Shown: positions 13,277-33,101 of the stretch, in pieces
Layout: every line of letters starts with the position of its first letter
Position numbering within the stretch: the first letter of the stretch is position 1
Source of the DNA: a virus
Length of the DNA stretch: 64,000 bases
Virus record (IMG/VR): IMGVR_UViG_3300000553_000014
Span: 1-64,000 of that record
Strand: one strand, 5' to 3'
Program-made: the position numbers and the translations under genes
Notes under the pieces: generated by a model
The model's input: the letters and a program-made list of their open reading frames with translations, nothing else
Database searches by the model: none
What the model was told of the DNA's origin: nothing

Positions 13277-13442
13277 AACTGTTTTTAGAAATATTACAAA
13301 TCAACAAATTTTAATAATTACTAAAGAATTTGAAGATATTAAATTTTCTGTTAAAGAACATAATGGAAATTTTTCAGATATAGTTTTACATCCAAATGAT
13401 ATTAAAAAAATAATTCAAACTTTAAATGTTTTAATAAAATGA
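13254..13442 (+). CDS. Small hypothetical protein (start uncertain)
   Basis: Fills gap; stop overlaps next ATG. Confidence 0.5.
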   Translation: MKEKNSIETVFRNITNQQILIITKEFEDIKFSVKEHNGNFSDIVLHPNDIKKIIQTLNVLIK

Positions 13443-14212
13443 GAAAAGATGAAGAATTAGACCATATTTGGTTTATTGCAGATACCCATTTTTTACATGA
13501 AAAGATTTTTGAATTTTTTCCTGCAAGAATTCAACAAGCATTAGAAGATAGTATTGGTAAAGATTTTGTTAATCATGACCAATGGTTAATTAATAGAATT
13601 AATTCAAAAGTAGGTAAAAAAGATACTATTTATTTTTTGGGTGATGTTTCACTTGGGTCAAAAATAAAAACAGAAGCTTTACTTGATACTATTGATGGAC
13701 GAAAAATATTAATTGCTGGAAATCATGATAAAAATCTTTTACATTCAACTCGTTTTCAAGAAATAAAACAAATTAAAAATTTCACATTTAATTCAGAAAA
13801 TATTCCGAATTTACATATAGTTTTATGTCATTATCCGATTTCAGTTTGGGAAAGAAAAGAACATAATTCATTACATTTACATGGACATACCCACGGGAGG
13901 TCTTCAGCCCTTCATAAAGAAATTGTAAATAATATAAATTCTTGGGATGTTGGTGTTGATGTGAATAATTATTATCCAATTAGTTTAAAAGAAGTTTTGG
14001 AAAAATTGAAATATAAACATATTCAAAAAATAAAAGAAAATGAATTAATTAAACAAATTAATAAAAATACTCCAATTAAACTTAATTTAGTTGGAAAAAA
14101 TGGATATGGTGAATTTAAAGATAAATTTAAATTTTGTGAATTTACAGAAAAACTTGATACAAAATGTTTTATTGAAGCAAATAATTTAAAATCTGAATCT
14201 AAAAAAGTATAA
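13439..14212 (+). CDS. Calcineurin-like metallophosphoesterase
   Basis: ADTHF, LGD, AGNHD, CHYP, HGHTH, DVGVD. Confidence 0.9.
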   Translation: MRKDEELDHIWFIADTHFLHEKIFEFFPARIQQALEDSIGKDFVNHDQWLINRINSKVGKKDTIYFLGDVSLGSKIKTEALLDTIDGRKILIAGNHDKNLLHSTRFQEIKQIKNFTFNSENIPNLHIVLCHYPISVWERKEHNSLHLHGHTHGRSSALHKEIVNNINSWDVGVDVNNYYPISLKEVLEKLKYKHIQKIKENELIKQINKNTPIKLNLVGKNGYGEFKDKFKFCEFTEKLDTKCFIEANNLKSESKKV

Positions 14213-14214
14213 TT

Positions 14215-14967
14215 ATGGAAAAATATGAAAATTTAAATGAAAAAAATTGTATTCGAACTCATACTGGAATTTATTTCAATGTTTTTGAACCAACCTTAGA
14301 AATGATTGATATTAAAGATATTGCACATGCTTTAAGTATGATTCCAAGATTTGGAGGGCATTTTCCATTACCTTATTCAGTTGCACAACATTCTGTATCT
14401 GTTGCGAATTTATTAGATAGAAAAAATGCTTTTACAGGTTTAATGCACGATGCTTCAGAAGCATATTTATTAGATATTCCAGCACCAATAAAACATAATA
14501 TTCCAGAGTATCAAAAAGCTGAAATAAAAATAATGCAATTGATTGCTAAAAAATATAAATTTCAATTTCCTTTTATTAATGAAATACATGAAGTTGATAA
14601 AAAATTATTAAAAAGTGAATGGAATTTTTTTGTAAATTATAATAAACAAGATAAAAGTTATTTTAAATGTTGGAAGCAAGAATATGCTGAAAAAAGATTT
14701 TTACATGAATTTTATAAATTACAAGAAATACCAATATATTTAACAAAAAAGAAATCAATGATAAATCATAACCCACTTGGTTTGGCACCTGGTGATGAAG
14801 TTATATTGGATGAAAAATTTAGAAATGGTTCAATAGTTATAATTGAAAGTATAACTTTAATGGGATTATTTTCAAATATTTATTCAAAAGAAGTTTTTGA
14901 AAGAGATAATAGAAAATCTACTTGGGAAGTAATGACAAATCGTTTAACAAAAATAAAATCAGAATAA
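14215..14967 (+). CDS. HD-domain 5'-deoxynucleotidase (YfdR/YfbR-like)
   Basis: DIAHALS..PRFGGH, YSVAQHS, LMHDASEAYL.DIP.PIK. Confidence 0.85.
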   Translation: MEKYENLNEKNCIRTHTGIYFNVFEPTLEMIDIKDIAHALSMIPRFGGHFPLPYSVAQHSVSVANLLDRKNAFTGLMHDASEAYLLDIPAPIKHNIPEYQKAEIKIMQLIAKKYKFQFPFINEIHEVDKKLLKSEWNFFVNYNKQDKSYFKCWKQEYAEKRFLHEFYKLQEIPIYLTKKKSMINHNPLGLAPGDEVILDEKFRNGSIVIIESITLMGLFSNIYSKEVFERDNRKSTWEVMTNRLTKIKSE

Positions 14968-18975: not shown

Positions 18976-19194
18976 ATGGAAAATGCAATTTTAAAATGGT
19001 CTTCTGAAGTTAAATTAGAAGATATTCAATTAGATAGAGAAATTGAAATTTCTCAAAAACAATATAATATTGTAAATACTAAATGTTCTGGTTTAGTATT
19101 TCATCGAAGTGAATTAGGTAAAAAATTTTTTATTAAACTTTGTTGGGAAAAATACAAAAAAGAAGTTTTTAATATACTTAAAGAAAATGAATAG
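18976..19194 (+). CDS. Hypothetical protein
   Basis: Coupled ORF. Confidence 0.7.
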   Translation: MENAILKWSSEVKLEDIQLDREIEISQKQYNIVNTKCSGLVFHRSELGKKFFIKLCWEKYKKEVFNILKENE

Positions 19195-19540
19195 AGAAGA
19201 AAAACAATTTAATGATTTAATTTATCAATATTATGGACAAAAAGATATGTTTGATAAAATAAAACATAATTTTTGGGCTGTTAGAACAAAATTATTAATA
19301 CATGATAGTTTTAGAAATTCTTTTATAAAAAAACAATTTGAAATGTGTACAACTGTTATTAATATAGCAAATCACACTTCCTTAGAATCATTAAGGCAAT
19401 TTTCAATAAGAAAAGATAAAACAGAAACTTTTGAATATTCAATTAATTTTGGGTACCAAGAACCAATTAAAATAAATTTACAATCTGCAGATGTATTTGA
19501 TGCAGATTTAATTAAAAAACAAATTTTATTAACAATATAA
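19187..19540 (+). CDS. Hypothetical protein, paralog of 19541
   Basis: Shared F.DL.Y..Y, QFE.CT..I, FEYSI...Y..PI. Confidence 0.75.
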   Translation: MNREEKQFNDLIYQYYGQKDMFDKIKHNFWAVRTKLLIHDSFRNSFIKKQFEMCTTVINIANHTSLESLRQFSIRKDKTETFEYSINFGYQEPIKINLQSADVFDADLIKKQILLTI

Positions 19541-19885
19541 ATGGCTAATTTAACAACAAAATATAAAAATAGTCGTGATATGTTATTTGATAATCTTGTT
19601 TATAAAACATATAAACATTTACCTGAAAAGGAATTTTTTGAAATTAGAAATAAATATCTTAGATGTCGCGATTTATTTTTTAATCAATTTTTTAATGATA
19701 GACTTACAACTTATAAATATCAATTTGAAATTTGTACAATTATAATAACTATTGTTCAAGATTCAATTGATGATAAATTAAATACTGATTCTGAAACAGA
19801 ATTTGAATATTCAATTTTTACTAAATATAAAATACCAATAATTACAAATATTAAAAAACAAAATAATGCTAATGAAAAACTTTGA
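19541..19885 (+). CDS. Hypothetical protein, paralog of 19187
   Basis: As for 19187. Confidence 0.75.
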   Translation: MANLTTKYKNSRDMLFDNLVYKTYKHLPEKEFFEIRNKYLRCRDLFFNQFFNDRLTTYKYQFEICTIIITIVQDSIDDKLNTDSETEFEYSIFTKYKIPIITNIKKQNNANEKL

Positions 19886-20795
19886 AAGACAATATGCAGA
19901 TAGTTTGCATAATTTACTCAAATTCGGTAAAAGAAAAAATAATCGTACAGGAATTACAACATTATCAATTCAACATCAATATTTTTATGTTCATCAACCT
20001 GCATTAGATTTTCCAATTTTAAAAGGTAAAAAAGTTTATCCAAAACTTGCATTAAAAGAAATGATGTGGATGTTAAATGGAAAAGATAATGTTAAATGGT
20101 TGAAAGATAGAGGAGTTAATTATTGGGATAATTGGGCTGATGAAAAAGGTTCAATTGGTAAAAGCTATGGTTATCAATTTAGACGTTGGGTAGATAATTC
20201 AAAATATAAAGGAACTGACCAAACAACATTATTAATACAAGAAATGTTAAATAATCCAGATTCAAGAAGATTAATAATAAATTTATGGAATGTTCAAGAT
20301 TTGGAAGAAATGAGATTACCTCCATGTGTTTATAATTATCAATTTGCAATAAATAAATTGAGAATTAATACATACGAAATAGATTTACATGTTTTATCTC
20401 GTTCAGAAGATTCATTTTTAGGTATGCCTTATGATATTATGGGAGCTTCTTGGTTATTGAAAATTTTTACAACATATTTATCTATGGAAACAGGAAATAA
20501 TTATGTTTGTGGAAATATACATTATACCGCAAATGATTATCATATTTATGAAAATCATATTTCACAAGCTTATGAATATTTAAGTAATATAACTAAAAAT
20601 AAAGATGGAATAATTGATGGAATTGCAAATATTAAAATAGAAATTCCTGAAGATTATAAACTTGAAAATAAGGAACTTAATGAAAGATTTGATAAAACTT
20701 TAAAATTTTGGGATGAACGAAATTATTGTGATTTTAAAATAGAAAAAAATTATAAAGAAGTTTATGGTAAAATAGAAGCTAAAGTTGCTGTGTAA
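19866..20795 (+). CDS. thyA: Thymidylate-synthase-fold enzyme (ThyA-like) with Asp at the substrate-specificity position
   Basis: NRTG, EMMWML, PDSRRL, LPPC, RSEDSFLGMPYD, HIYENH. Confidence 0.9.
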   Translation: MLMKNFERQYADSLHNLLKFGKRKNNRTGITTLSIQHQYFYVHQPALDFPILKGKKVYPKLALKEMMWMLNGKDNVKWLKDRGVNYWDNWADEKGSIGKSYGYQFRRWVDNSKYKGTDQTTLLIQEMLNNPDSRRLIINLWNVQDLEEMRLPPCVYNYQFAINKLRINTYEIDLHVLSRSEDSFLGMPYDIMGASWLLKIFTTYLSMETGNNYVCGNIHYTANDYHIYENHISQAYEYLSNITKNKDGIIDGIANIKIEIPEDYKLENKELNERFDKTLKFWDERNYCDFKIEKNYKEVYGKIEAKVAV

Positions 20796-20936
20796 TTTGA
20801 AGTGATTAATCAAATATATACAAAAGTTAGTTTTTATTAGTTTCGAAACCAAAAAATATTTAATAAAGGTGTCACATTCCAGCCCTTTACAAGACCAACA
20901 GCGTGGAGCTATTAAATATTTTTTTATTTAAAAATA

Positions 20937-21137
20937 ATGGGGAATACAAATAAAAAAGTTACATTAACAATGAGTTTTGAAATAACTCAAAATGAAGCAG
21001 AAACTCAAGATTTTAAAGAATTCAAAAATTTAATAGAATCTGGACAAATGCAAAAAGAAATGAAAAGAACTGTTCCTGGAAATAATAGAGATATATTTAA
21101 ACCTAAAAAAATTAAAGCAACAATAACAATCAAATAA
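20937..21137 (+). CDS. Hypothetical protein
   Basis: ORF 66 aa. Confidence 0.65.
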   Translation: MGNTNKKVTLTMSFEITQNEAETQDFKEFKNLIESGQMQKEMKRTVPGNNRDIFKPKKIKATITIK

Positions 21138-21141
21138 ATTT

Positions 21142-21546
21142 ATGTTACATATAGGTGGTGATTATCAAAAAAGAATAATTGACAAAAAGAATTTAATACC
21201 GAAAAATGAACCGGTTTTTTTATTAAGAGGTAAAGATAAATTAGCTCCAGCATTACTTTTAGAATGGGCTAAACAAATAAGATTATTAGGAGGAGACCCA
21301 GAAGTTGCAGAATTAGTTGAAGCTCAAGCACAAAATATGCTTGATTGGCAAAGAAGAGTTTTAAGAACTCATGGTAAATTACCTGATATGCCAGATGAAA
21401 TTAATGATAAAATTTCAAATATTGTTGAAATTGAAATTACAGAAAAAAGTAATGAAATAATTATATCAAATATTGAAGAATTGTCAATTGCTTTTGGAGA
21501 AGATAAATTAATTCAAATTGGTAAAATTTTAACTAAAATAAAATAA
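21142..21546 (+). CDS. Conserved phage hypothetical protein
   Basis: EPVFLLRGKDKLAP...W motif, which I recall from other phage proteins. Confidence 0.7.
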   Translation: MLHIGGDYQKRIIDKKNLIPKNEPVFLLRGKDKLAPALLLEWAKQIRLLGGDPEVAELVEAQAQNMLDWQRRVLRTHGKLPDMPDEINDKISNIVEIEITEKSNEIIISNIEELSIAFGEDKLIQIGKILTKIK

Positions 21547-21547
21547 A

Positions 21548-21748
21548 ATGATAAAAACAACAATAATTGAAACAAATAAATTTGTTGATATAAATAATGA
21601 ATTAAGTAATAATGAATATTTAAAAACAATAAAATTATTTGGAATTAAACTTTATCAATATTATTATAAATTAGATGTTACATTACCTGATAGAAGTGGA
21701 AATATTGTAAAAGGATTTCAAAATGAACAAAATACTGAAGAATCTTAA
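21548..21748 (+). CDS. Hypothetical protein
   Basis: Coupled ORF. Confidence 0.65.
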   Translation: MIKTTIIETNKFVDINNELSNNEYLKTIKLFGIKLYQYYYKLDVTLPDRSGNIVKGFQNEQNTEES

Positions 21749-21750
21749 TT

Positions 21751-22140
21751 ATGAAATTACTTGAACAACATGAATTTTTACAAAAAATGAAACTTGATAA
21801 AAAAATGTTTCATTATAAAGAAGTTTGGACATGGACTGATACAAAAATTCGTTGGATATATAAAGAATATAATCCAAGAGAAAATATTGTTGTTGGTTAT
21901 ATGTTAATTAGGGTTAGAGGTGAAGGATTTTATCTTTGTAATTTTGAAAAACGAAATATTCAAGAATTTTATTATGGAATTGAATATTTTAAAGTTACTG
22001 ATAAAGAAATTGTTGATGCTTTGTTCAATTTAAGAGAATTTGTTGCTATTGATTTTGGAAACACTTCACAATTTTATGAAGATAAGGATATAGATAATTA
22101 TATAATAAAATTTTTACAAGAAAATAATATTCAAATATAA
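21751..22140 (+). CDS. Hypothetical protein
   Basis: Coupled ORF. Confidence 0.7.
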   Translation: MKLLEQHEFLQKMKLDKKMFHYKEVWTWTDTKIRWIYKEYNPRENIVVGYMLIRVRGEGFYLCNFEKRNIQEFYYGIEYFKVTDKEIVDALFNLREFVAIDFGNTSQFYEDKDIDNYIIKFLQENNIQI

Positions 22141-22328
22141 TGAGTGAATGTTTATATTGTGGACAGAAAAATCCCAAAAAATTAAATGGATATTGTATTA
22201 AATATAGTTGTGAAAATCGTAGAAAACAAGATATTGAAAGTCAACAACAATATAAACAAACAGGATTTGATTTAGATAAAATTCATGAACAAAATTTAAA
22301 ATATAATAAAAAGTTTCAAAATAAATAA
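22140..22328 (+). CDS. Small Cys-rich (zinc-finger-like) protein
   Basis: CLYC...C....C. Confidence 0.65.
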   Translation: MSECLYCGQKNPKKLNGYCIKYSCENRRKQDIESQQQYKQTGFDLDKIHEQNLKYNKKFQNK

Positions 22329-22344
22329 TTTTAAATAATTATAA

Positions 22345-25300
22345 ATGACTAAAATCGCACATTATGCGGACATACAAGTTAAGAACCGTGAAAAACCATT
22401 ATATAATGTTTACAGAAATACTCTGAAACAAATAGAATTTCATATTGAACAAACTGAAGTTGAAATCGCAGTACTTGCAGGAGATTTCTTTGAATATGAT
22501 ATTCCAAATGATTCTGAAAGAAAATTAATCAATAATCATTTAGCACATTTATTGAATATTAAAACATTAAAAGAAATTGTTTTAATCGCTGGTAATCACG
22601 ACTTAACTAAAGACAAAAAACAAATTGATACTCTAATTGGTTTCAATCCAATTAGTATTTTCAATGATATGATGAATACTTTAGATAAGAAAAAAGCTGA
22701 AAAAATAATTTATATTAAAGAATCAAAAATTTATCAATCAAAAGTTGATGAAAAAATTAATTATATTGGATATAGTTTAGAAGATGGATGTAATCCAGAT
22801 TTAAGTTTAATAAATCCAGATAAAATAAATATTTGTATTTTTCATGCAATGATTCGCGAATATGTTGATTTACGAAAATTACCCGTAAGAAAAGATATTT
22901 TGAATTCTTTATTTAGTTTGGAACAATTTCCAGCAAATTCATTAATTCTTGCAGGGGATATACATGAAAATTTAAAATTTGATGGATTAAATGACCAAAT
23001 ATTTTACTATCCAGGTTCAACCACGCAACATACACATAATGAAGGCTCTTTTTATAAAATATCAGATGATATTGAAATAAAAATTGGTGAAACTAAATCA
23101 ATAAAAATATTTTCTTTTGATGAACAAGAATTTGGAACACAAGATATTGAATTAGAAAATCCAATTATTTATAATACAATTTCATTAGATTTTCGTATTC
23201 CATATCCAATAATAAAAGGACATCTTGAAAATTTGGAATTAACTTATGGTACATTACAAACATATATTAAAGTTAAATCTTCAAATATTTTTGTTCAAAA
23301 AGAAGCTGAAATTTTTAAAACACTTAGTGATAAAAATGTTAAAGATAAAGTAACAATTTATTTTGAATATGATAAATTTGTTCAAAATTCTATAAGTTCA
23401 GAAAATAAAATTATTAATGAAATTATTGAAGAGAAGAAAAATTCAGTAACAATTCAAAATCCTGAACAAGAATCTACTGATTTAGTAATAAATCAAGATA
23501 ATATTGATGAATTAATTTTAAATCAAGAACAATTAAATAAATTATTTACTTCAGTTCTTGATGAAATGTTAATTTCAACTAAAAGTGAATTTGATGATTT
23601 AACTTTAGATGAAATTAAAATAGATATAATAGGATTATTTGAAAAAGAATTAAATTCAACTACAGCTTTAACAACCAAAAGATATAAAACAATTTTTAAA
23701 TCAATAAAAACTAATTGTTTTATGTCATTAGGTGAAAATCAAGTAAATCTTGATATTCCTGGAATTATTAGAATTTTAGGAACTAATGGTATTGGGAAAA
23801 CAACATTATATAATATGATTCGTTGGGTTATAACTGGATTTGTATATGATGGAATGTCAAAAAATAATGTTGTTAAAAATAATTTAATTGTTTTTAATAA
23901 AAATCTTATTGATATTGATTATGTTAATGTTGAATTATTTGCTAATATAAATAATTTAAACATTTCTATGATTAGAACAGTTGTGAGGAAATGGAAAAAT
24001 AATACAACTGATGAACAAAAAATGTCTTTAAATTGGAAAGATTATGTTGGAGGAATTGATAGAACATTTACATTAAATTTAACAACAGAATTAGGACAAG
24101 TTAAAACATATACTGGAGAACAAGCAGAAAAAAATGTTTTAATTTGGTTTGGACAAACAATTGAAAATATTTTGTTTTTAAATCAAACAAAAATTGAATT
24201 AATGTTAGGATTAAATTCAGATAAACTTAATGAATTAATACTTAATTTTATAGGTGTTGATTATTTAAATAAATTAGAAAGTAATCTTGATATTGTTAAA
24301 GGAGATTTATTAAATATTTCAAAACCAAAGAAAATTCGTGAAGATATTCAAAATGCTTTAATTGATAATAAAATCTTTTTAGAAAAAGCTGAAAAAACTT
24401 TGGAAGAAAAAGATATTGAATTAATTAAAACTCTTGAAGAAGAAAATATTGCAAAAACTTTAGTTAAAAAAATTAACACTGAATTACTTTCCATAGGTAA
24501 TATTCCAGAATTAATGGAAAATAAACAACAAGAAATTAATTTAATTATTGAAAAAATTGAAAATTTTGGAGATATTGAAGAAAAAAAGAAATTAATCGAA
24601 TTTGTAGAAATTAAACCAAAATTAAATGAATTATTAATATCTAATTTTGAAGAAAATATTAAATATAATGATAATTCTATTAATGATGAAATTGAAATTA
24701 AAACCGAATTTGAAAGAGAATTAAAAATACTTAATGAAGTTAAAATTCCTGAAATTATTTCAAATGCAAAAGAATTAATTAATTCTGATTTAAAAACATT
24801 AACTGAAGAATTTAATCAATTAATTAAAGATAAAAAAGATAAATATAATGAAATTCTTGTAATAATTGATTCAAAAGTTCAAGCACTTACAGATAAAAAA
24901 ATAAAAACCGATGAAGAAATAAATGATTATAATACAAATATTGGAGTTTTAACAACAGAAATTTCAATATTAAAAATAAAATTTGAAGATATTAATAAAG
25001 AAATAATTTCAGGAGTTTGTGATAAATGTAAAAGACCTTTTGGAACAAAAGAATCTTGGGATATTCATTTAAAAGAACTTGAAGAAAATAAAATAAAAAT
25101 AACTAAAGAAAAATCTGAAAAAGAAAAAGAAAAAGAAATTATTGATATTGAATACACAGCAAGAAAAACTTTATTATCAAAAATTACATCAGCTCAATTA
25201 TTATTGAAATATGTAAGAGATTCAGCTTTACAAGAAAATAATACTTTATTTGAACATCCTTCTTTAGTAAAATCAGAAAATGTTCAATCAATTAAACCAT

Positions 25301-26439
25301 TAATTGATGAAATTGAATTAAAAATTAATAAAAATCAAAAAGAACAAAAAGAATTTAACAAAAAATTATCTAATTTATATTATATTGAAAAAATACAATA
25401 TAATAAATATGAAGAATGCAAAGAATTAATTAAAGAAAATAATGATAAAATATTTTGGGAAAGTATTGATTATATTATTATTGACCATAAAGCTTTAAAT
25501 TTAAAAATTAAAGAATGTCAAGATAGAATTGATAAATATAATTCAAATATTCAAGATTCTAAAGATTTAATTAAATCACTTAATGATGAACATATAACAG
25601 CTTTAGAAAAATATCAAGAACTTTTTAATGCAAATATCTTAGCAAATAAAGAAATTCAAAAATATAATGATTCAATTGAATCATTTAAAAATGAAAAACT
25701 TAATTTAGAAAAAGATAAAATTCGTTTAGAAAAAGAATATTTACTTTTAGAAAATCAAACAGAAAATTATAATTCAATTAATTTAAAATTAAAAACAGCT
25801 GAAGAAAATGAAACATTAATAACAAAAAATGTTAATAATATAAAATCTGAACAAACACAACTTAAACTTAATATTGTTGAATTTAAAAATCAAAAAGAAA
25901 AAATAAATATTGAATATAAAGATTATTTGAAATATATTAAAAATAATTTAATTTGGAAAATTTATTCAAAATTAATTAAAAATAATTTCAAAGAAATTGT
26001 ATTTGAATATTATCGTAATTTTTTAAACAATACATTAAATTATTTATTAGAAGATGTTAATTTCAAATTATTTTGGAATAAAGATTCTGAATTAATTCAT
26101 CTTTCTTATAAAGATGGAAAATGTACTTTTCAACCTGTTCAACAATCTTCTGGAATGGAAACATGTTTTCTTGGATTAAGTTTAATTTATACTATGCACT
26201 TACTTAATGTAAAAAATACTGTTTCACATTTATTTATTGATGAAATTTCAGGTACTTTAAATTCGGGTAAAGAATTAACTTATGAAGCTAAAAATTATAA
26301 AGAATTATTAGTTATTTTATTATCTAAATTTAATGATAAAAGTGTTTTCATAATTGACCATAATATAGATAATTTATTTGAAACAACAACTTATGAAGTT
26401 AGACCAGAAGAATCTGGTTCTAAATATTTTCAATTATAA
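22345..26439 (+). CDS. sbcCD: Fused SbcD (Mre11)-SbcC (Rad50) nuclease-ATPase
   Basis: ADIQ, AGDFF, AGNHD, FHA, GDIH; Walker A GTNGIGKTT, FLNQ, zinc hook CDKC, SSGME, LFIDE, IDH; long coiled coil. Confidence 0.9.
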   Translation: MTKIAHYADIQVKNREKPLYNVYRNTLKQIEFHIEQTEVEIAVLAGDFFEYDIPNDSERKLINNHLAHLLNIKTLKEIVLIAGNHDLTKDKKQIDTLIGFNPISIFNDMMNTLDKKKAEKIIYIKESKIYQSKVDEKINYIGYSLEDGCNPDLSLINPDKINICIFHAMIREYVDLRKLPVRKDILNSLFSLEQFPANSLILAGDIHENLKFDGLNDQIFYYPGSTTQHTHNEGSFYKISDDIEIKIGETKSIKIFSFDEQEFGTQDIELENPIIYNTISLDFRIPYPIIKGHLENLELTYGTLQTYIKVKSSNIFVQKEAEIFKTLSDKNVKDKVTIYFEYDKFVQNSISSENKIINEIIEEKKNSVTIQNPEQESTDLVINQDNIDELILNQEQLNKLFTSVLDEMLISTKSEFDDLTLDEIKIDIIGLFEKELNSTTALTTKRYKTIFKSIKTNCFMSLGENQVNLDIPGIIRILGTNGIGKTTLYNMIRWVITGFVYDGMSKNNVVKNNLIVFNKNLIDIDYVNVELFANINNLNISMIRTVVRKWKNNTTDEQKMSLNWKDYVGGIDRTFTLNLTTELGQVKTYTGEQAEKNVLIWFGQTIENILFLNQTKIELMLGLNSDKLNELILNFIGVDYLNKLESNLDIVKGDLLNISKPKKIREDIQNALIDNKIFLEKAEKTLEEKDIELIKTLEEENIAKTLVKKINTELLSIGNIPELMENKQQEINLIIEKIENFGDIEEKKKLIEFVEIKPKLNELLISNFEENIKYNDNSINDEIEIKTEFERELKILNEVKIPEIISNAKELINSDLKTLTEEFNQLIKDKKDKYNEILVIIDSKVQALTDKKIKTDEEINDYNTNIGVLTTEISILKIKFEDINKEIISGVCDKCKRPFGTKESWDIHLKELEENKIKITKEKSEKEKEKEIIDIEYTARKTLLSKITSAQLLLKYVRDSALQENNTLFEHPSLVKSENVQSIKPLIDEIELKINKNQKEQKEFNKKLSNLYYIEKIQYNKYEECKELIKENNDKIFWESIDYIIIDHKALNLKIKECQDRIDKYNSNIQDSKDLIKSLNDEHITALEKYQELFNANILANKEIQKYNDSIESFKNEKLNLEKDKIRLEKEYLLLENQTENYNSINLKLKTAEENETLITKNVNNIKSEQTQLKLNIVEFKNQKEKINIEYKDYLKYIKNNLIWKIYSKLIKNNFKEIVFEYYRNFLNNTLNYLLEDVNFKLFWNKDSELIHLSYKDGKCTFQPVQQSSGMETCFLGLSLIYTMHLLNVKNTVSHLFIDEISGTLNSGKELTYEAKNYKELLVILLSKFNDKSVFIIDHNIDNLFETTTYEVRPEESGSKYFQL

Positions 26440-26458
26440 CAAATAATACAAATTTTAT

Positions 26459-27091
26459 ATGGAACAAGAAAATAATAAAATGAATAATTTTAGAAATGAA
26501 CTTGAAATTCTTATTAATAAATATTCATTAGAAAATGGAAGTAATACTCCTGATTTTATTTTGGCACATTTTTTAACTGATTGTTTAAAAGCATTTGATG
26601 GAGCTTCAGAAGCTAAACGTAAATATTATGGGCAAGCACAAGAAGGAACAATTTATCATGAATTACATAAAAAATTTATGGAACATATTCCAGAATCATT
26701 AAAATTAAATGAATGTGGAACAAATGATAATAATTTAGAAAAAATTGTCATAACAACAGGTATTCCTGCAGGTTGTGGATTTACTGGTCAAAGTCATTCA
26801 GTTTTTGTTGAAAAAATGACAACAAATATTGCTCCAATTGAATCAACTGATATTCCTGAAATTACAATGATTAAAAAAATTCCTGATGTAATTTGTCATG
26901 AATCAACAAATGAAATTTGTCAAACTTGTCCTGAAATAATAAATTGTACTGAATGTTTTCCAAATATTGAAAATTGTCAAGTAAAAAAATTTGAAGAATT
27001 AAATAAAATTGAAAATTCTTTTGAAAAAGATTCAATTTGTAAATTTTGTAAAAACAATCCATGTATTTGTGAAGATGATTTACCATTTTAG
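26459..27091 (+). CDS. Hypothetical Cys-rich protein ending in SSB-like DDLPF
   Basis: ENGSNTPDFILA..L..CL motif; CxxC clusters; C-terminal EDDLPF. Confidence 0.75.
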   Translation: MEQENNKMNNFRNELEILINKYSLENGSNTPDFILAHFLTDCLKAFDGASEAKRKYYGQAQEGTIYHELHKKFMEHIPESLKLNECGTNDNNLEKIVITTGIPAGCGFTGQSHSVFVEKMTTNIAPIESTDIPEITMIKKIPDVICHESTNEICQTCPEIINCTECFPNIENCQVKKFEELNKIENSFEKDSICKFCKNNPCICEDDLPF

Positions 27092-27098
27092 TTTTGAA

Positions 27099-27128
27099 TG
27101 CTCATTTTATTATAAATTAATGGATATA
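27099..27128 (+). promoter_or_regulatory. Phage bipartite promoter
   Basis: TGCTCAT-N15-TGGATATA. Confidence 0.85.
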
Positions 27129-27159
27129 AAAATTTAATAAGTAATTTAAAAATATTTTT

Positions 27160-27390
27160 ATGGAAAATTCAGATAAAATTGAATTAACTAAACATAATCA
27201 AAGAAAAATTGAATTTGGTGTTGGTTGTCATACAATTAATAAACCAGGAATGATTGTTGGAGAAGGTTCAAAAATACCTATAGGTATTTATGGACAATGT
27301 ATTGAATGTGGAAAAACTCATACAAATTATTCAAATTATTGTAATACGTGTACAGCAAAAAATTTTAATAATATAATTCTAAATAAATAA
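27160..27390 (+). CDS. Small zinc-ribbon protein
   Basis: CIEC...CNTC. Confidence 0.7.
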   Translation: MENSDKIELTKHNQRKIEFGVGCHTINKPGMIVGEGSKIPIGIYGQCIECGKTHTNYSNYCNTCTAKNFNNIILNK

Positions 27391-27392
27391 TT

Positions 27393-27692
27393 ATGATAAC
27401 AATTGACAAAAAAACTGTTGTAATTGAATTTGGCAAAAATGGAATGGGAGCAGTATCTTTACAAAGTAAAAATACAAGTAATTATGGTGGAGATGATGGA
27501 AATATTTTAACTATTCGAGATTTAGAAGAAGCAGTTAAAATTGGTGAAAATCCTGAAAAAGATTCTCCTGATTTACCTAAAGTTGTTTTAACTTTTTATG
27601 ACGAAAAATCTATTGATGTTGTAATTGAAAATTTAAAACGTATTAAACAAAATTTAAAATTTCCACAAGGAAGTTTTGCTTTAGCTTGTTAA
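27393..27692 (+). CDS. Hypothetical protein
   Basis: Coupled ORF. Confidence 0.7.
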   Translation: MITIDKKTVVIEFGKNGMGAVSLQSKNTSNYGGDDGNILTIRDLEEAVKIGENPEKDSPDLPKVVLTFYDEKSIDVVIENLKRIKQNLKFPQGSFALAC

Positions 27693-27696
27693 AATT

Positions 27697-28491
27697 ATGG
27701 AAGATATATTAACAATAATTCCAATTACAAAAAGACAACTTATTTTAGAAGAAGCTTATGATGTAATTGAAAATAATTTAGAATTAAATTCATTAGATGC
27801 AATATTTGATAATTCAGTAACTTTAAAAATGTTAGAAAATTATAGAAATAATGGTTTTGTTATTACTGAAAATAAAAATGTTTTTCTTGATTATTTTCCT
27901 GAATTAAAATGTCATGATTTTTTAGCTAAAGGTAAATCAGCACTTAAAGTTATAAATTATGCAATACAATATAATATAAATACTTTAGATAATAAAGCAA
28001 CATTTGAATATGCTAACATAATGAAAAAATTAAATTTGTCAAATTATGTTACAAAATATTTAGATATATTAATTGTTGAAATTCCATTAAATGCAAGTGA
28101 ATTTGTTGTTAATGTTAATAATGAAACAAAAGAATTTGAATTAGAATTTCGAATTGAAGAAGATTCAATGCCAAGATTTGTTCATTTAAAAACTGATAAT
28201 GAATTACAAATAATTGGCAAATTTTCTGAATTATGGAAAAATAATCAAATTATTTGGGAAGATATTTTACAAAATAAAAATTATTTTTATAATGAATTTG
28301 GAGATTTTGTTAAAAAAGCAAAACTTAATTGTCAAGCATATTATCAAAAACATAAAAGTACTTTTGAAATTTCAGATAAATTTAAAACATTACCAGAAGA
28401 TTTTTTATTATTAAAAATTGGAGAAAAATCAAATGTTTTTGATAGATTTATTGAATTTGAAAATGAAGGAATAATTAATGATAATGCCTAA
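27697..28491 (+). CDS. Hypothetical protein
   Basis: ORF 264 aa. Confidence 0.75.
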   Translation: MEDILTIIPITKRQLILEEAYDVIENNLELNSLDAIFDNSVTLKMLENYRNNGFVITENKNVFLDYFPELKCHDFLAKGKSALKVINYAIQYNINTLDNKATFEYANIMKKLNLSNYVTKYLDILIVEIPLNASEFVVNVNNETKEFELEFRIEEDSMPRFVHLKTDNELQIIGKFSELWKNNQIIWEDILQNKNYFYNEFGDFVKKAKLNCQAYYQKHKSTFEISDKFKTLPEDFLLLKIGEKSNVFDRFIEFENEGIINDNA

Positions 28492-28828
28492 TCAAATTGT
28501 TAATGCACATTTTAATAAATATGATGTTTATATTGGAAGACCTTCAAAATGGGGTAATCCATATTCACATTTAAAAATTAAAGGAACAATTAAAGTTAAA
28601 ACTCGAAAAGAAGCAATCCTTAAATATATTGAATATATTACAAAAGGTTCAGGAAAACCTTTGTTAAAAGATTTATCTGAACTTGAAGGAAAAATATTAG
28701 GATGTTGGTGTTATCCACAAAGATGTCATGGAGAAGTTTTAATCAAATTATTGGAATTAAAAAAACAAAATGAATTTAGAACAAATAATCAAACGAATAA
28801 AGACAATAAAAACAACAATTCAATTTGA
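28478..28828 (+). CDS. DUF4326 family protein
   Basis: YDVYIGRPSKWGNPY, LEGKILGCWCYPQRCHGEVL. Confidence 0.9.
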   Translation: MIMPNQIVNAHFNKYDVYIGRPSKWGNPYSHLKIKGTIKVKTRKEAILKYIEYITKGSGKPLLKDLSELEGKILGCWCYPQRCHGEVLIKLLELKKQNEFRTNNQTNKDNKNNNSI

Positions 28829-29162
28829 TAATGATAAAGAAATTGAAATAATTATTGATAATTATGATATGTTAAATCATCCTGGTTTAAATATTCAAAC
28901 TATTAATACATTATTGGGTAGAATGATTGGAAATCCAATTGAAACTTATTGTGAAGAAAATCCAATTGAAACTGAAATGCAAAAAGCATTAAATTCAAGA
29001 GAATATAAATTATCAAGTTATACATTTGTTGATACTAAAGAAAATACTATAGGTATTTCATTATATGAAGTTAATTCAATGAAATCAAAATATTTTGAAT
29101 ATCAAACTTATGCAGATGCTTATGATGATTTAGAATTTTGTAAAAAGAAATTTAATTATTAA
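28770..29162 (+). CDS. Hypothetical protein
   Basis: ORF 130 aa. Confidence 0.7.
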   Translation: MNLEQIIKRIKTIKTTIQFDNDKEIEIIIDNYDMLNHPGLNIQTINTLLGRMIGNPIETYCEENPIETEMQKALNSREYKLSSYTFVDTKENTIGISLYEVNSMKSKYFEYQTYADAYDDLEFCKKKFNY

Positions 29163-29185
29163 TGAAAATAAAAATATTTTGGAAG

Positions 29186-29237
29186 TGGATAATTAGGTAA
29201 AACTGATTGTCCATTTTTATTTTAAATAATGGATATA
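29186..29237 (+). promoter_or_regulatory. Terminator hairpin fused to phage promoter
   Basis: TGGATAATTAG/CTGATTGTCCA stem then T-tract; TGTCCAT(29208)-N15-TGGATATA. Confidence 0.8.
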
Positions 29238-29267
29238 ATAATTAATAATAATTAATATTTACAAATT

Positions 29268-29453
29268 ATGAGTGTTGATTTAGAAGTTAATGAAAGATTA
29301 CGAAAAGCAAGAGCTTGTTTATCTAAAGCATATAATGAATTAAATATCGTTCTTAATGAAAATACTCAAGGACATGAAAATTTAACATCTCAACATCTTG
29401 AAGAAATTCAACAAGTTTCAATTGAATTAATCAAATTAAGAAAAAGAATATGA
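29268..29453 (+). CDS. Small coiled-coil protein
   Basis: First ORF after promoter. Confidence 0.7.
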   Translation: MSVDLEVNERLRKARACLSKAYNELNIVLNENTQGHENLTSQHLEEIQQVSIELIKLRKRI

Positions 29454-29731
29454 ATGTTTTAGGAACTATTGAAAAATTAAATGAGAAATTAGTATTTTTA
29501 CCAAAATTAGATATTGATATATTTTTTGACATTTGTAAACCAAATGAACAACATATAAAAGAAAATTCTTTATATTTTCTTGATTTGGAAAATATTTCTG
29601 ATTTACAAGAAAATCAAATTATTTATTGTAAATTTATTTATCTTCCATTAGAATTTGTTAATGAAAATTGGAAATATGATGTTAAAATACAAATTCTTGA
29701 TAAAAATGGACAAAAATATTTGAAAGAATGA
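29450..29731 (+). CDS. Hypothetical protein
   Basis: ATGA-coupled. Confidence 0.7.
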   Translation: MNVLGTIEKLNEKLVFLPKLDIDIFFDICKPNEQHIKENSLYFLDLENISDLQENQIIYCKFIYLPLEFVNENWKYDVKIQILDKNGQKYLKE

Positions 29732-30207
29732 TAACCGAATTTAAAGAAGAATATTGTTGGTTAAGTAATTTTCATCCTTGTAAAATAATTCTTAATAATT
29801 TAGAATATCCTTCAGTTGAACATGCTTATCAATCTGCCAAATCAAATGATATTGAATGGAAAAAATATTGTCAAAATTCAAATAATTATGCTGGCAAAAT
29901 TAAAATAAATTCAAAAAATATTATTAAACATAAAGATTGGGAAGACCATAAAATTACAATAATGTATTTATGTTTAATTCAAAAATTTGAACAAGAACCT
30001 TTTAAAACAAAATTAATTCAAACTAAACATGAAAGAATTAAAGAAGGAAATAATTGGGGAGATAAATTTTGGGGAATTGATATTAAAACAAGTAGAGGTG
30101 AAAATGTTTTGGGTAGATTAATAGAAAAAATTCGAACAAAACTAATACAAGAAAAAAATGGAAAATCAAAAAATACAACAAAAGAAAAATTCAGTATTTC
30201 TGAATAA
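29728..30207 (+). CDS. NADAR (YbiA-like) family protein
   Basis: LSNF, YPSVEHAYQSAK, KFEQ, EGNNWGDKFWG, GENVLGRL. Confidence 0.9.
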   Translation: MITEFKEEYCWLSNFHPCKIILNNLEYPSVEHAYQSAKSNDIEWKKYCQNSNNYAGKIKINSKNIIKHKDWEDHKITIMYLCLIQKFEQEPFKTKLIQTKHERIKEGNNWGDKFWGIDIKTSRGENVLGRLIEKIRTKLIQEKNGKSKNTTKEKFSISE

Positions 30208-30418
30208 ATCTTTAAATAAATATTATTTAACTGATTTAAAACTTCGTAAATTATGTGAATATAAATTTAATTTATTAAATAAAATTCAAATAATTTATAA
30301 CCAAAATGAATTTAAACTTATTTATCCAGATAATTTTGATAAAATGTTAGAATATTTTGATAAATTAATTTCAAATCGTAAACAATTTTTATTAGAAAAA
30401 TATATAAATTTGAATTAA
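30158..30418 (+). CDS. Hypothetical protein
   Basis: ORF 86 aa. Confidence 0.6.
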   Translation: MENQKIQQKKNSVFLNKSLNKYYLTDLKLRKLCEYKFNLLNKIQIIYNQNEFKLIYPDNFDKMLEYFDKLISNRKQFLLEKYINLN

Positions 30419-30420
30419 TT

Positions 30421-30633
30421 ATGATTAAAAAATTTATTAAATGGTTTTTAAAACCAGGAAAACAATATTCTTTTACTTTGCCTCATATATTTTATTATGG
30501 ATGTAATGATTATCATTGGATAAGATTTTATAAATATACTGGGCTAAGTTTTCTTTATGGAACAACAGTTAATTTTGAAAGTTTTTTTACAATTACTTTT
30601 GATAAAAATAAAATTTTAATTGAAAAAAATTAA
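30421..30633 (+). CDS. Hypothetical protein
   Basis: Coupled ORF. Confidence 0.6.
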   Translation: MIKKFIKWFLKPGKQYSFTLPHIFYYGCNDYHWIRFYKYTGLSFLYGTTVNFESFFTITFDKNKILIEKN

Positions 30634-30635
30634 TT

Positions 30636-30908
30636 ATGAATTGTATAATAATAACATGTATAAAATGTATTAAAAGTTACGAACTTTATAAACAAGAACA
30701 ATGTGATAATTGTTCAAAATTTGAATGGATAATATTTAAAACTGAAGAACTTTGTAATGAAGAATACAAAAAACAATTTCCTGAGCAATTTAATGAAAAA
30801 GGAATTTATAAAGAAAATTTACCAAAATGTAATAAACCATTAGAAAATTGTCAAAAATTTTCAAATCATGGATTTAGTGCTTGTCCAGTTTGTCAAGAAT
30901 ATTATTAA
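30636..30908 (+). CDS. Cys-rich small protein
   Basis: CIKC, CDNC, CPVC. Confidence 0.7.
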   Translation: MNCIIITCIKCIKSYELYKQEQCDNCSKFEWIIFKTEELCNEEYKKQFPEQFNEKGIYKENLPKCNKPLENCQKFSNHGFSACPVCQEYY

Positions 30909-30921
30909 TATTAAATAAATT

Positions 30922-31452
30922 ATGGAAAAAACAAAAAATCAATATTTAGCTGAAAAAATAGTTGAATATTATAAATCAATTAGTTTTGAAAAATATAAAG
31001 ATACTGAAATAGGATTAATTGAAGTTTTAGATTCATATAGTAAACAATATGATGAAAAATCTAAAAATGAAATTAAATTAGTTAAAAATATTTTGGGTCA
31101 AAATTTAGAAGATGTTAATTTAGTTATAAATAATTCAGAATTAACTCAAGCACAAAGATGTTGTAAAGATTTTTTTGATATTGAAAAACATATTGCATTA
31201 TTTAAAGAAAGAGAACATTATCGAGAAATTATTGCAGAACAATCTTATGATGTTGGAAGAAAAATTTGGCTTGAATTAGAAGTTGTTGATAAAGAAATGT
31301 CTCATTTTTTATTTAAATGGATGTATGGAAAATTTGAAGATATTTATAATATTCCTTTTGGTTGTAAATTACATGTAATATCTTGGGTTCCTCCTGGTGG
31401 TGAAGTTTTAAAAAATAAATTAATTGAGTTTTTAAATGAAAATTTCAAATAA
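30922..31452 (+). CDS. Hypothetical protein
   Basis: ORF 176 aa. Confidence 0.75.
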   Translation: MEKTKNQYLAEKIVEYYKSISFEKYKDTEIGLIEVLDSYSKQYDEKSKNEIKLVKNILGQNLEDVNLVINNSELTQAQRCCKDFFDIEKHIALFKEREHYREIIAEQSYDVGRKIWLELEVVDKEMSHFLFKWMYGKFEDIYNIPFGCKLHVISWVPPGGEVLKNKLIEFLNENFK

Positions 31453-31455
31453 AAT

Positions 31456-31785
31456 ATGGAAGAAAAAATTAAAAAAAATCAAATTATATCTAATAATATT
31501 TTTCGTTATTTTATTAGAATACAATTTCCTGATATTAAAGACCAGTTAACAAATGATGATTTAGATGCTTTAAATGAAGGATTTAATGAATATTTGAATA
31601 AAATACCTGAAGAAAAAAGAAATAATTTTTTACCAAATAAAGAAACTGATTTAATTGTAAATATAACTAATCCTTTATATTTTAATGGATTTCATCCAGC
31701 ATTTGTATTACATTTTACAGAATTTATTAAAACAGAACAAATGAGAATTGAATTGGAAGAAAATAAATCAGAAAATAAAAATTAA
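31456..31785 (+). CDS. Hypothetical protein
   Basis: Coupled ORF. Confidence 0.7.
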   Translation: MEEKIKKNQIISNNIFRYFIRIQFPDIKDQLTNDDLDALNEGFNEYLNKIPEEKRNNFLPNKETDLIVNITNPLYFNGFHPAFVLHFTEFIKTEQMRIELEENKSENKN

Positions 31786-31786
31786 T

Positions 31787-32145
31787 ATGATAAAATCAGA
31801 TTTTAAAAAAGTTAATAAATTTTTGAAACAGTTAAATTCAACAGAATACCTTTATCTTAAACATACTATGGATGTTGTTGATATGATAAATATTCTTATC
31901 AAAAATATAAATATTCTAAAGAATTATTTTTAGAATATTTTAAAATAAATGAATTTGATTATTCTCATTTTATTTCAGGTGATTGGAATTATAAACTTAG
32001 TGATATTACAACTTGTCAATTTTTATTAAATTATTTTACTCGTCGAACTTTTGAAATTGAAATGGCAACAAAAGAAGAAAATGAAGAAAAAATTAAAAAA
32101 TGTACTGAATGTAATAATCCAAATTTAAATTGTTGTCAATGTTAA
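31787..32145 (+). pseudogene. Frameshifted gene (about 119 aa if repaired)
   Basis: Adding one A to the A5 run at 31901-31905 joins MIKSDF... to ...KELFLEYF...CTECNNPNLNCCQC. Confidence 0.65.
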
Positions 32146-32181
32146 TATATAATAATTATTAACATATTAAATAAATATTTT

Positions 32182-32571
32182 ATGGATTTTGGTTTAGATT
32201 TTGATGGTTCATGTGTAACAAATGATTACCCAAAAATTGGGCAAGATATTGGTGCAGTTCCAGTACTTAAAAAATTAATTGAAAATAATCATCGTTTAAT
32301 TCTTTTTACTATAAGAAGTAATTTTAATGGGAAAACAGATTTAGATGCTGCTGTTGAATGGTTTAAAAATAATGATATTCCACTTTATGGAATAAATGAA
32401 AATCCAACTCAAGCTAATTGGAACTCAAGTCCAAAAATCTTTGCAGATTTTTATATAGATGATTTAGCTGTTGGATGCCCTTTAAAACTTGATAGAAAAT
32501 TATCTTTAAATCCGTTTATTGATTGGAAAATAATGGAACAATGGTTAATTAACGCACAACTAATAAAATAA
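32182..32571 (+). CDS. HAD-superfamily phosphatase (BT0820-like)
   Basis: DFDGSCV, LFTIRS, SPKIFADFYIDD. Confidence 0.85.
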   Translation: MDFGLDFDGSCVTNDYPKIGQDIGAVPVLKKLIENNHRLILFTIRSNFNGKTDLDAAVEWFKNNDIPLYGINENPTQANWNSSPKIFADFYIDDLAVGCPLKLDRKLSLNPFIDWKIMEQWLINAQLIK

Positions 32572-32575
32572 TTTT

Positions 32576-32785
32576 ATGGAATTAAAAGCATTACCTTTAA
32601 ATATTGAATATAATAATCTTAATGAAAATGAACCAGAACATCAACAAATTTGTATAGCTTCAAATGGAAAATTTAATTATATTCTTGGTTTATATGATAA
32701 AGATACAAAACATTTTGTTAATGAAAGAGGTACTGTTCCAAAAGATTTTATATATTGGATAAATATGCCAACAAATAAAAAATAA
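32576..32785 (+). CDS. Hypothetical protein
   Basis: Ends YWINMP (DUF551-like terminus, weak). Confidence 0.65.
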   Translation: MELKALPLNIEYNNLNENEPEHQQICIASNGKFNYILGLYDKDTKHFVNERGTVPKDFIYWINMPTNKK

Positions 32786-32808
32786 ATAAATAAATTATTC
32801 AGAACTCT

Positions 32809-32875: not shown

Positions 32876-32901
32876 TAACTTTAATTGTAAAATATTTTTA
32901 A

Positions 32902-33084: not shown

Positions 33085-33101
33085 ACAACTAATATTTTTA
33101 T

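Follow-up and report, generated by a model that had tools for sequence, protein, structure and literature searches.

Does a phage homologue of thymidylate synthase (TS) that carries aspartate at the pyrimidine specificity position still act on deoxyuridine monophosphate (dUMP), or has it been re-aimed at deoxycytidine monophosphate (dCMP), and which group would it then place on the base? The question is raised by a ThyA-family gene on the plus strand at positions 19866-20795 of the 64-kb stretch analyzed here (the window), which is the first 64 kb of the 88,302-nt IMG/VR virus record IMGVR_UViG_3300000553_000014. Based on its open reading frame (ORF) of 309 residues, its match to PF00303, its alignment to E. 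coli ThyA and an analysis of its clade, we predict that this ThyA homologue is a dCMP C5-methyltransferase (5-methyl-dCMP synthase). An initial annotation had proposed a dCMP-directed enzyme, serving either a phage DNA with 5-methylcytosine (5mC) or 5-hydroxymethylcytosine (5hmC) or, together with a deaminase-DHH fusion encoded at 38276, a route to thymidine monophosphate (dTMP) via 5-methyl-dCMP.

Identity of the ThyA homologue

The ORF at 19866-20795 translates without a stop into 309 residues. Two codons further on, at 19872, there is another in-frame ATG, and an identical database protein (P0002) has 307 residues, so the protein may start at Met3 and be 307 residues long. Residues 9-245 match the Pfam family PF00303 (Thymidylat_synt) with an E-value of 1e-61, and the PHROGs match is PHROG 160, "thymidylate synthase" (E 1.6e-68). 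The best solved relatives are bacterial TSs, with E. coli ThyA at an E-value of about 2e-40. Of the NCBIfam models, TIGR03284 is scored above its cut-off (149.8 vs 108.35), whereas the score of 188.9 against the 327-bit cut-off of NF002497 is far under the equivalog threshold. The two nearest relatives, at 76% and 56% identity, both have Asp at position 177 of E. coli ThyA. When positions 19000-23000 were compared by blastn with 50,697 phage records, no match was found; tblastn with the protein matched 3983 records, all at <60% identity and with 38% as the top value among the 40 matches listed. Since blastn gave nothing and the tblastn identities are low, the clade of the ThyA homologue has no anchor in a cultured phage.

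Active-site residues compared with E. coli ThyA

Residues were mapped from a HMMER alignment to E. coli ThyA (chain 1qqq_A) with the numbering counted by hand; position numbers such as 177 and 147 refer to E. coli ThyA throughout. The segment LSRSEDSFLGMPYD comprises residues 177-190 of the phage protein, and its last codon, GAT at 20433-20435 on the plus strand, encodes Asp190, the equivalent of Asn177. Translation and alignment bear out the Asp codon that the initial annotation had placed here, and the two further changes that it had listed, PCH to PCV and Gln to Ser, are found as well. Val155 stands at His147 within the motif LPPCV (20316-20330, plus strand), which also holds the catalytic Cys154 (Cys146) and a retained Leu151 (Leu143), and Ser178 stands at Gln165. 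Together with the changes of Ala142 to Arg, Cys168 to Glu181 and Asn177 to Asp190, these are the substitutions among the active-site positions compared with E. coli ThyA.

The retained residues cover catalytic, phosphate-, deoxyribose- and folate-binding functions. They are Arg21, Lys48, Glu58, Trp80, Trp83 and Tyr94 (residues 27, 55, 65, 87, 90 and 101 of the phage protein), Arg126, Arg127, Leu143, Cys146, Arg166 and Ser167 (134, 135, 151, 154, 179 and 180), and Asp169, Gly173, Asp205, His207 and Tyr209 (182, 186, 224, 226 and 228). The protein therefore has what is expected of the fold of a dCMP methyltransferase, namely PF00303, Cys154 and the phosphate-binding Arg27, Arg134, Arg135 and Arg179, plus Ser180. 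Asp190 is ≥90% conserved in an alignment of the clade (A1, 52 sequences). The hydride-transfer apparatus is likewise present, with Leu151, Trp87 and Trp90 (Trp80 and Trp83), Asp182 and the C-terminal tail IEAKVAV. This tail, encoded with its stop codon at 20772-20795 on the plus strand, is the counterpart of the ThyA lid that seals the folate site (PMC6400193): it matches the E. coli lid residues Ile258, Ala260, Val262, Ala263 and Ile264, and in A1 I303 shows no variation, with A305 and A308 conserved at ≥90%.

Asp177 and loss of His147 across the clade

A search of 5.8 billion proteins returned 324 matches at E ≤1e-10, of which the best 120 were analyzed. The identical P0002 was left out of the alignment and the query was added, so that the residue counts given here relate to these 120 homologues. 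Position 177 is Asp in 82 and Asn in 37, and one fragment lacks the column. The 82 Asp-type homologues have Leu (79) or Ile (3) and never an acidic residue at position 143, and all 82 have Asp169. At position 147 they carry Val (51), Met (20), Phe (4), Leu (3), Gln (2), Pro (1) or His (1), and a ThyA-like C-terminal tail is found in 63 of the 82. Among the 37 Asn-type homologues, His147 is present in 31 and Gln165 in 32.

We built a FastTree phylogeny of 121 rows, for which support values are local only. The query falls in a group of 72 rows (68 Asp and 4 Asn, support 87), and a separate group of 37 rows with support of 100 has 33 Asn-type canonical ThyA proteins among its members. The Xp12 enzyme and T4 gp42 sit on very long branches. 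Four Asn177 proteins are nested in the Asp clade (P0040, P0064, P0069 and P0070), three of them with Gln at 147, and three Asp177 rows (P0103, P0113 and P0119) lie within the canonical Asn-type group, together with the Xp12 reference on its long branch. Asn and Asp thus seem to have been exchanged several times and in both directions, the tree requiring at least six changes. Because they are kept together across the homologues and the tree group, Asp177 and the loss of His147 are, on the evidence of alignment and tree, a clade character rather than a sequencing error or the drift of a single gene.

Predicted product of the ThyA homologue

Published signatures relate such residues to substrate and product. 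According to PMC8670742, position 177 sets pyrimidine specificity and a change of Asn to Asp turns TS to dCMP, yielding 5-methyl-dCMP (5mdCMP); the same paper cites two laboratory mutants, E. coli ThyA N177D and L. casei TS N229D, as dCMP methylases, and reports that, among 433 virome TS homologues, no two residues were linked to cytosine-modified contigs as strongly as those at 177 and 147. Asp177, the loss of His147 and Gln165, their clade-wide conservation and this rule support the dCMP-directed enzyme that the initial annotation had proposed. Hydroxymethylases, as described in PMC6400193, are marked by an acidic residue 3 positions before the Cys and by the loss of both Trp83 and the C-terminal tail. 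The T4 dCMP hydroxymethylase has Val for Trp83 and Asp145 where TS has Leu143, and its D145N mutant is reported there to form no 5-hydroxymethyl-dCMP (5hm-dCMP). That source also states that TS gives off dihydrofolate and requires dihydrofolate reductase (DHFR), whereas the hydroxymethylase gives off tetrahydrofolate. In PMC13326640, an acidic residue at 143 accompanies non-methyl products and D169N is the mark of flavin-dependent 5-hydroxy-dCMP synthases.

By these rules the ThyA homologue is predicted to be a dCMP 5-methyltransferase and not a hydroxymethylase or 5-hydroxylase, because its Leu151, Trp90, tail, Asp182 and Asp190 fit the methyl type. Of the two modified bases named in the initial annotation, 5mC is therefore the one favored, and 5hmC is disfavored by the retention of Leu143, Trp83, Asp169 and the lid.

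Three other assignments disagree with the same alignment. For a T4-type dCMP hydroxymethylase, Leu151 is found 3 positions before the Cys, and Trp90 and the tail are retained. For a flavin-dependent 5-hydroxy-dCMP synthase, Asp182 is not Asn and Leu151 is not acidic. For a canonical ThyA (dUMP to dTMP), Asp190, Ser178 and Val155 replace Asn177, Gln165 and His147.

A deaminase fused to a DHH phosphoesterase

The likely partner of the methylase is a 480-residue protein encoded at 38276-39718 on the plus strand, in which a dCMP-deaminase domain (about residues 6-130) is fused to a DHH/DHHA1 phosphoesterase (about residues 165-474). The fusion reported in the initial annotation is real, with Pfam matches to PF00383 (1.2e-14), DHH (1.4e-6) and DHHA1 (7e-5) and a match to PHROG 4771, "DHH phosphoesterase" (5.4e-31). 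Seven fused homologues show no variation in the deaminase motifs HAE and PCxxC, nor in the NrnA-like DHH/DHHA1 motifs D177, D179, D223, D249-H250-H251 and G450-G451-G452-H453. A profile of these seven matched the phage S-TIM5 dCMP deaminase in the PDB at 2.8e-25 and NrnA-like DHH proteins more weakly, at 1.7e-6 to 5e-3; the latter include 9r7o (1.7e-6), the B. fragilis "exopolyphosphatase-related protein" 3w5w (3.3e-6), and NrnA, TM1595 and PggH (7e-4 to 5e-3). Taken by itself, the DHH part most resembles viral DHH proteins, about 300-370 residues long, that carry no functional name. By family, the DHH domain should cleave short oligonucleotides, pAp or phosphoanhydrides, and our guess is that it provides 5'-monophosphates to the pathway.

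This architecture is found repeatedly: of the best 150 cluster representatives (50% identity) in an exhaustive profile search, 31 cover both domains, and fusion homologues include P0130-P0154 and P0161. The related IMG/VR record G002 encodes a full-length homologue that is 36% identical. In another record, G010 (L052:422-1944), the domains are split into a DHH/DHHA1 ORF of 321 residues and, 12 nt further on, a deaminase ORF of 181 residues, an adjacent-gene form which argues that the two activities work together. We did not find the fusion described in a limited literature search, and the main text of the preprint on TS homologues and their deaminases (bioRxiv 10.1101/2024.12.05.627091) does not contain the word "DHH".

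The fusion was seen in ten records (our own, G002, L135, L136, L137, which is G014, L138, L139, L140, L141 and L142). A TS gene is visible in four of them (our own, G002, L136 and L142), while the other six are either short or end close to the fusion; in G014, the 68 kb available, at 30% completeness, contain no PF00303. All four TS genes are of the Asp177/Leu143/non-His147 type and lie 8-17.5 kb upstream of the fusion on the same strand, although the four records share gene order and are not independent. The two genes are separated by 17,481 nt here (from 20795 to 38276), by 9.5 kb in G002, by about 8 kb in L136 and by about 9 kb in L142. An in-cis module of the mSCD type, with PF00383 within about 3 kb of an Asp-type TS, was also considered and rejected, the two genes lying on the same strand and in the same block without being adjacent.

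The initial annotation had asked whether the Asp variant and the deaminase co-occur. On fusion records, the TS genes are of the Asp type in four of four non-independent cases. Among 13 related IMG/VR records, chosen by similarity and too few to support a conclusion, a PF00383 deaminase occurs in four of nine with an Asp-type TS and in one of four with an Asn-type TS, with no clear difference.

Genome context and the relative G002

The 88-kb record is rated 36% complete by CheckV and is very AT-rich, the G+C content of the phage being 20-25%. The stretch is present in freshwater metagenome runs, none of those listed being RNA. Only 1 of 20 ORFs in one scanned set of neighbors has a Pfam match and most other neighbors are unnamed too; because of this scarcity of matches in the scanned ORFs, we regard the phage, on its gene content, as very far from described families. 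ARAGORN found no tRNA or tmRNA in the 64-kb window. The possibility of a second thyA or thyX, raised in the initial annotation, was answered by finding a single PF00303 gene and no ThyX in the 88-kb record, and the same in G002.

G002 (locus set L053-L061) is 160,875 nt long with 30.7% G+C and is bounded by direct terminal repeats, and is probably complete. BLASTP matches to it were found for 44 ORFs of the query record, at 29-68% identity and in the same order: a helicase-like protein, a 553-residue protein, TS, a Mre11/Rad50-like protein and ribonucleotide reductase (RNR), followed by the deaminase-DHH protein, a ligase, a helicase and then structural genes. The single PF00303 gene of G002 is of the Asp type. 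DHFR is present in G002, MazG and PRA-PH are not found there, and a match to the dUTPase fold falls under the cut-off (E 7e-4). Since DHFR is present and the sole TS-family enzyme is of the Asp type, G002 fits a methylase that releases dihydrofolate.

A single PF00303 gene, and no ThyX, is present in each of the 13 related IMG/VR records searched. In G004, G006 and G007, all rated 100% complete, the sole TS is of the Asp type. G006 and G007 (L012 and L013) are 45-46 kb long, and their TS combines Asp177 with retained His147 and Gln165 in the signature LCHQADD; both have a dUTPase and neither has a PF00383 deaminase or DHFR, a combination unlike that of the query's lineage.

Several neighbors of the ThyA homologue also concern nucleotides or nucleic acids. 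The large chain of RNR is encoded at 33102-35747 on the plus strand (PF02867, E 1.6e-64) and is 53% identical and colinear in G002; its gene is within the same conserved nucleotide-metabolism and replication block as the ThyA homologue. An HD-type protein like phage deoxyribonucleoside 5'-monophosphate phosphatases is encoded at 14215-14967 on the plus strand (PHROG 318, E 4.6e-52). Its YfbR-like Pfam match is weak (2.3e-4) and under the cut-off, and it has no BLASTP match in G002 at E 1e-5. The adjoining ORF at 13439-14212 matches PHROG 547, "phosphoesterase" (3.1e-45). These adjacent phosphohydrolases (13439-14967) are possible candidates for further enzymes of the deoxynucleoside mono- and triphosphate (dNMP/dNTP) pool. 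Lastly, the ORF at 22345-26439 encodes 1364 residues, with an N-terminal calcineurin-like phosphoesterase and a Rad50/SbcC-like AAA_23 ATPase, and is 42% identical in G002; from its domains, it looks like a Mre11/SbcD-Rad50/SbcC nuclease in one polypeptide.

Comparison with known systems

The functional model for the ThyA homologue is the deoxycytidylate 5-methyltransferase of Xanthomonas phage Xp12, which makes 5mdCMP for 5mC-containing DNA and for thymidine nucleotides by deamination, according to bioRxiv 10.1101/2024.12.05.627091. Both proteins have the ThyA fold, the catalytic Cys, Asp177, a residue other than His at 147, and Asp169. In the Xp12 record MT664984, the TS gene lies at 45326-46195 and the deaminase at 44850-45326, with a DHFR-like gene nearby; similarly, a deaminase is encoded in the query's genome and a DHFR in its lineage (G002). 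The two enzymes are nevertheless only 24% identical over 243 residues, Xp12 is placed on its very long branch elsewhere in the tree, and it has Asn143 and a different C-terminus. The Xp12 deaminase is a stand-alone protein of 158 residues that adjoins the TS, whereas that of the query is 17.5 kb off and fused to a DHH phosphoesterase. From these differences, it looks as if the query's clade was derived from canonical ThyA separately from Xp12.

In its scaffold, the ThyA homologue resembles the N177D and N229D mutants more closely. Since nearly all other ThyA residues and the lid are kept next to the Asn-to-Asp change, the phage protein can be described as a natural counterpart of these mutants, although it is also changed at His147, Gln165, Cys168 and Ala142. 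Compared with E. coli ThyA, it has about 27 extra residues before the C-terminal tail (residues 245-309 vs 227-264).

T4 gp42 belongs to the same superfamily, uses dCMP as its substrate and, as our alignment to it confirms, carries Asp at the specificity position, as had been stated in the initial annotation. It differs from the query in having Asp 3 positions before the Cys, Val for Trp83 and no tail (PMC6400193), the Asp and the missing tail being visible in our alignment too, where the query has Leu, Trp and a tail, and the identity between them is 24% over 212 residues. The 5-hydroxy-dCMP synthases RB69 gp48 and DLP3 gp80 are likewise ThyA homologues with Asp177 that act on dCMP (PMC13326640). 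Their D169N and L143E changes are absent from the query, which has Asp182 and Leu151 at these positions.

For the fusion, the closest systems are the 5mC-selective deaminases of the mSCD-B5 type that are encoded next to Asp-type TS genes (bioRxiv 10.1101/2024.12.05.627091), with which it shares PF00383, intact HAE and PCxxC motifs and a phage whose only TS homologue is of the Asp type, and from which it differs in lying >3 kb from the TS and in being fused to DHH/DHHA1. Its second half is like the NrnA-like stand-alone DHH/DHHA1 phosphoesterases (nanoRNases, pAp phosphatases and dinucleotide phosphodiesterases) in that all four DHH motifs are intact, and so is GGGH. It is unlike them in that the similarity is weak and the DHH domain is fused to a deaminase.

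Discussion

We favor, with a probability of roughly 55%, a reading in which a TS retuned from dUMP to dCMP makes 5-methyl-dCMP for 5mC-containing phage DNA while the fusion derives thymidine nucleotides from the same pool. It rests on four observations: which residues occupy the active site, how well they are conserved, the presence of only one TS gene in a relative that is probably complete, and the linkage to the fusion. From these we infer the substrate and product of the enzyme, the presence of 5mC in virion DNA and the substrate of the deaminase.

In this pathway, dCMP would come from the breakdown of host DNA, or from dCDP or dCTP via RNR. Cys154 would attack C6 of dCMP, and the methylene group of 5,10-methylene-tetrahydrofolate would be joined to C5. 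The intermediate would then be reduced to a methyl group, as expected because the hydride-transfer apparatus (Leu143, Trp80/Trp83, Asp169 and the C-terminal lid) is intact, with methylene-tetrahydrofolate serving as both carbon donor and reductant and with 5-methyl-dCMP and dihydrofolate as the products. Once phosphorylated to 5-methyl-dCTP, the methylated nucleotide would replace dCTP, wholly or in part, in the synthesis of phage DNA. The fusion would deaminate part of the 5-methyl-dC nucleotide pool to thymidine nucleotides, and because of this proposed supply an AT-rich phage would need no dUMP-type TS.

Published work on Xp12-like phages is consistent with this reading. In bioRxiv 10.1101/2024.12.05.627091, 5mC-containing DNA and thymidine nucleotides made by deaminating 5-methyl-dC nucleotides are proposed as one pathway. 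Five of the seven Asp-type TS homologues described there made 5-methyldeoxycytidine (5mdC) in vivo, and 70% of the deaminases on modified contigs lay within 3 kb of a TS homologue. The initial annotation had set modified DNA and the dTMP bypass against each other; both are in print, as parts of one published pathway rather than as an either/or. Its route to dTMP via 5-methyl-dCMP is also in print as far as thymidine nucleotides by deamination are concerned, but the model deaminase reported in the preprint made dTTP from 5mdCTP and left monophosphates unchanged.

Several points weigh against the favored reading. GATC is found 2 times in the 88-kb record against 167.6 expected (0 vs 633.6 in G002). 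Because GATC is nearly absent, the DNA appears to be still under selection by a reader of GATC, which suggests that a host system of this kind still exerts strong selection and is not neutralised by the presumed cytosine modification. According to the same preprint, two of the seven predicted methylases gave no 5mdC. The proven Xp12 methylase has Asn at 143 and 24% identity to the query, and since it carries Asn143 the Leu143 rule is a correlate and no law. No match at E 0.1 was found in the 88-kb record for DHFR, MazG, PRA-PH or dUTPase. A small P-loop kinase was not seen either, a Walker A scan of the 88 kb having given only the SbcC-like protein, with no search using T4 gp1 made. Full replacement of dCTP has no visible enzyme, because neither MazG nor PRA-PH, the dCTP pyrophosphatase families looked for, was found in the 88 kb or in G002. 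These absences of accessory genes are weak, since the record is 36% complete and most ORFs match no family. Lastly, the deaminase is 17.5 kb from the TS, outside the 3 kb used in the preprint, and its distribution over the 13 similarity-picked records does not distinguish Asp-type from Asn-type genomes.

CTAG is depleted as well, being found 0 times against 41.6 expected in the 88-kb record (2 vs 88.8 in G002), and other 4-base palindromes that contain C occur about as often as expected. The observed/expected ratio of CpG is 0.54 here, at 22% G+C, with TpG (1.30) and CpA (1.23) in excess, vs 1.04 for CpG in G002. Although the depletion of GATC and CTAG is striking, palindrome counts do not show whether cytosine is modified. 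CpG gives no consistent signal across the two genomes, and its low value here may reflect either 5mC deamination at CpG or ordinary low-GC bias.

The best surviving alternative, which we nonetheless hold to be improbable, is a pure thymidylate bypass, in which 5-methyl-dCMP is only an intermediate that the fusion converts entirely to dTMP (or dTTP), so that dUMP and dUTP are avoided and the cytosine of the virion is ordinary. It would agree with the failure to detect a dCTPase, a dUTPase or a dNMP kinase in the 88 kb, and MazG or PRA-PH in G002, although absence of accessory genes counts for little in so divergent and incomplete a genome. At 20-25% G+C, the demand for T is far above that for C; the TS gene is conserved along with the fusion; and the avoidance of GATC suggests that sequence-specific host enzymes still read the DNA. 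On the other hand, the DNA is modified in phages where the module has been studied, namely Xp12 and the MetaGPA contigs (bioRxiv 10.1101/2024.12.05.627091 and PMC8670742), and the complete Asp-type phages G006 and G007 lack a deaminase, so that the product there could hardly be only a dTMP precursor.

It is still more doubtful that the enzyme makes 5hm-dCMP, or places another group on C5, for a DNA with 5hmC or a derivative of it. Asp at 177 is common to T4 gp42, the rules on products are based on few tested enzymes, and most neighboring ORFs have no known family, among which a transferase could hide. The residues argue otherwise: Leu and not Asp or Glu precedes the Cys by three positions, a site where the D145N change in T4 abolishes the reaction (PMC6400193), and both Trp83 and the entire C-terminal lid are kept. 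A variant on the lines of the 5-hydroxy-dCMP synthases is opposed by the retained Asp169, by the rule in PMC13326640. In addition, G002 has a DHFR though no other TS, the identity to T4 gp42 is only 24%, and no glycosyl- or carbamoyl-transferase family appeared in general ORF scans, which included no search aimed at these families by accession.

An ordinary dUMP-dependent TS, with Asp and the other changes as tolerated drift and the deaminase supplying dUMP like T4 cd, is just as improbable: it would suit a protein that is the nearest thing to a TS in its genome, resembles E. coli ThyA (E about 2e-40) as many true phage TSs do, accompanies a dCMP deaminase, the classical supplier of dUMP, and belongs to a clade in which four Asn-type proteins indicate that the switch is evolutionarily easy, but Asn177, His147 and Gln165 change jointly, His147 being kept by a single one of the 82 Asp-type homologues but by 31 of the 37 Asn-type ones, and because this joint change is patterned across the two types it argues for selection and not drift.

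Under the favored reading of a dCMP methylase with a deaminase partner, the kind of enzyme is already in print, with the Xp12 methylase, the MetaGPA association of 2021 and the route of TS plus deaminase in the 2024 preprint. Judged by alignment, the gene at 19866-20795 is a new and divergent member, on a scaffold much nearer to textbook ThyA than that of Xp12. What is unusual is the fusion of the deaminase with an NrnA-like DHH phosphoesterase, an architecture that is recurrent, also occurs split (G010) and has so far been seen beside Asp-type TS only (4 of 4). With regard to the specificity of its deaminase half, the preprint calls selectivity for 5mC polyphyletic and gives no sequence signature by which to recognize it. 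An unlikely though less remote idea than the alternatives above is that the fusion is a previously undescribed, salvage-coupled thymidylate machine, which would turn host cytosine to thymine without dUMP or dUTP. In such a scheme, 5'-monophosphates would be released by the NrnA-like DHH domain from short oligodeoxynucleotides left by the breakdown of host DNA (or from pyrimidine dNTPs). The dCMP among them would be methylated by the Asp-type TS, and the resulting 5-methyl-dCMP, still a monophosphate, would be deaminated to dTMP by the other half of the fusion.

If the favored reading is true, a freshwater phage lineage writes 5mC into its DNA by a pathway that acts at the nucleotide level, and its thymidine nucleotides would probably come from cytosine nucleotides, bypassing dUMP. 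The Xp12-type pathway would thereby extend to very divergent, very AT-rich large phages, and the ThyA homologue would be a "natural N177D" ThyA, useful for learning how few changes re-aim a thymidylate synthase. The deaminase-DHH fusion is a candidate for new chemistry of the nucleotide pool and a possible tool enzyme, like the published 5mC-selective deaminases.

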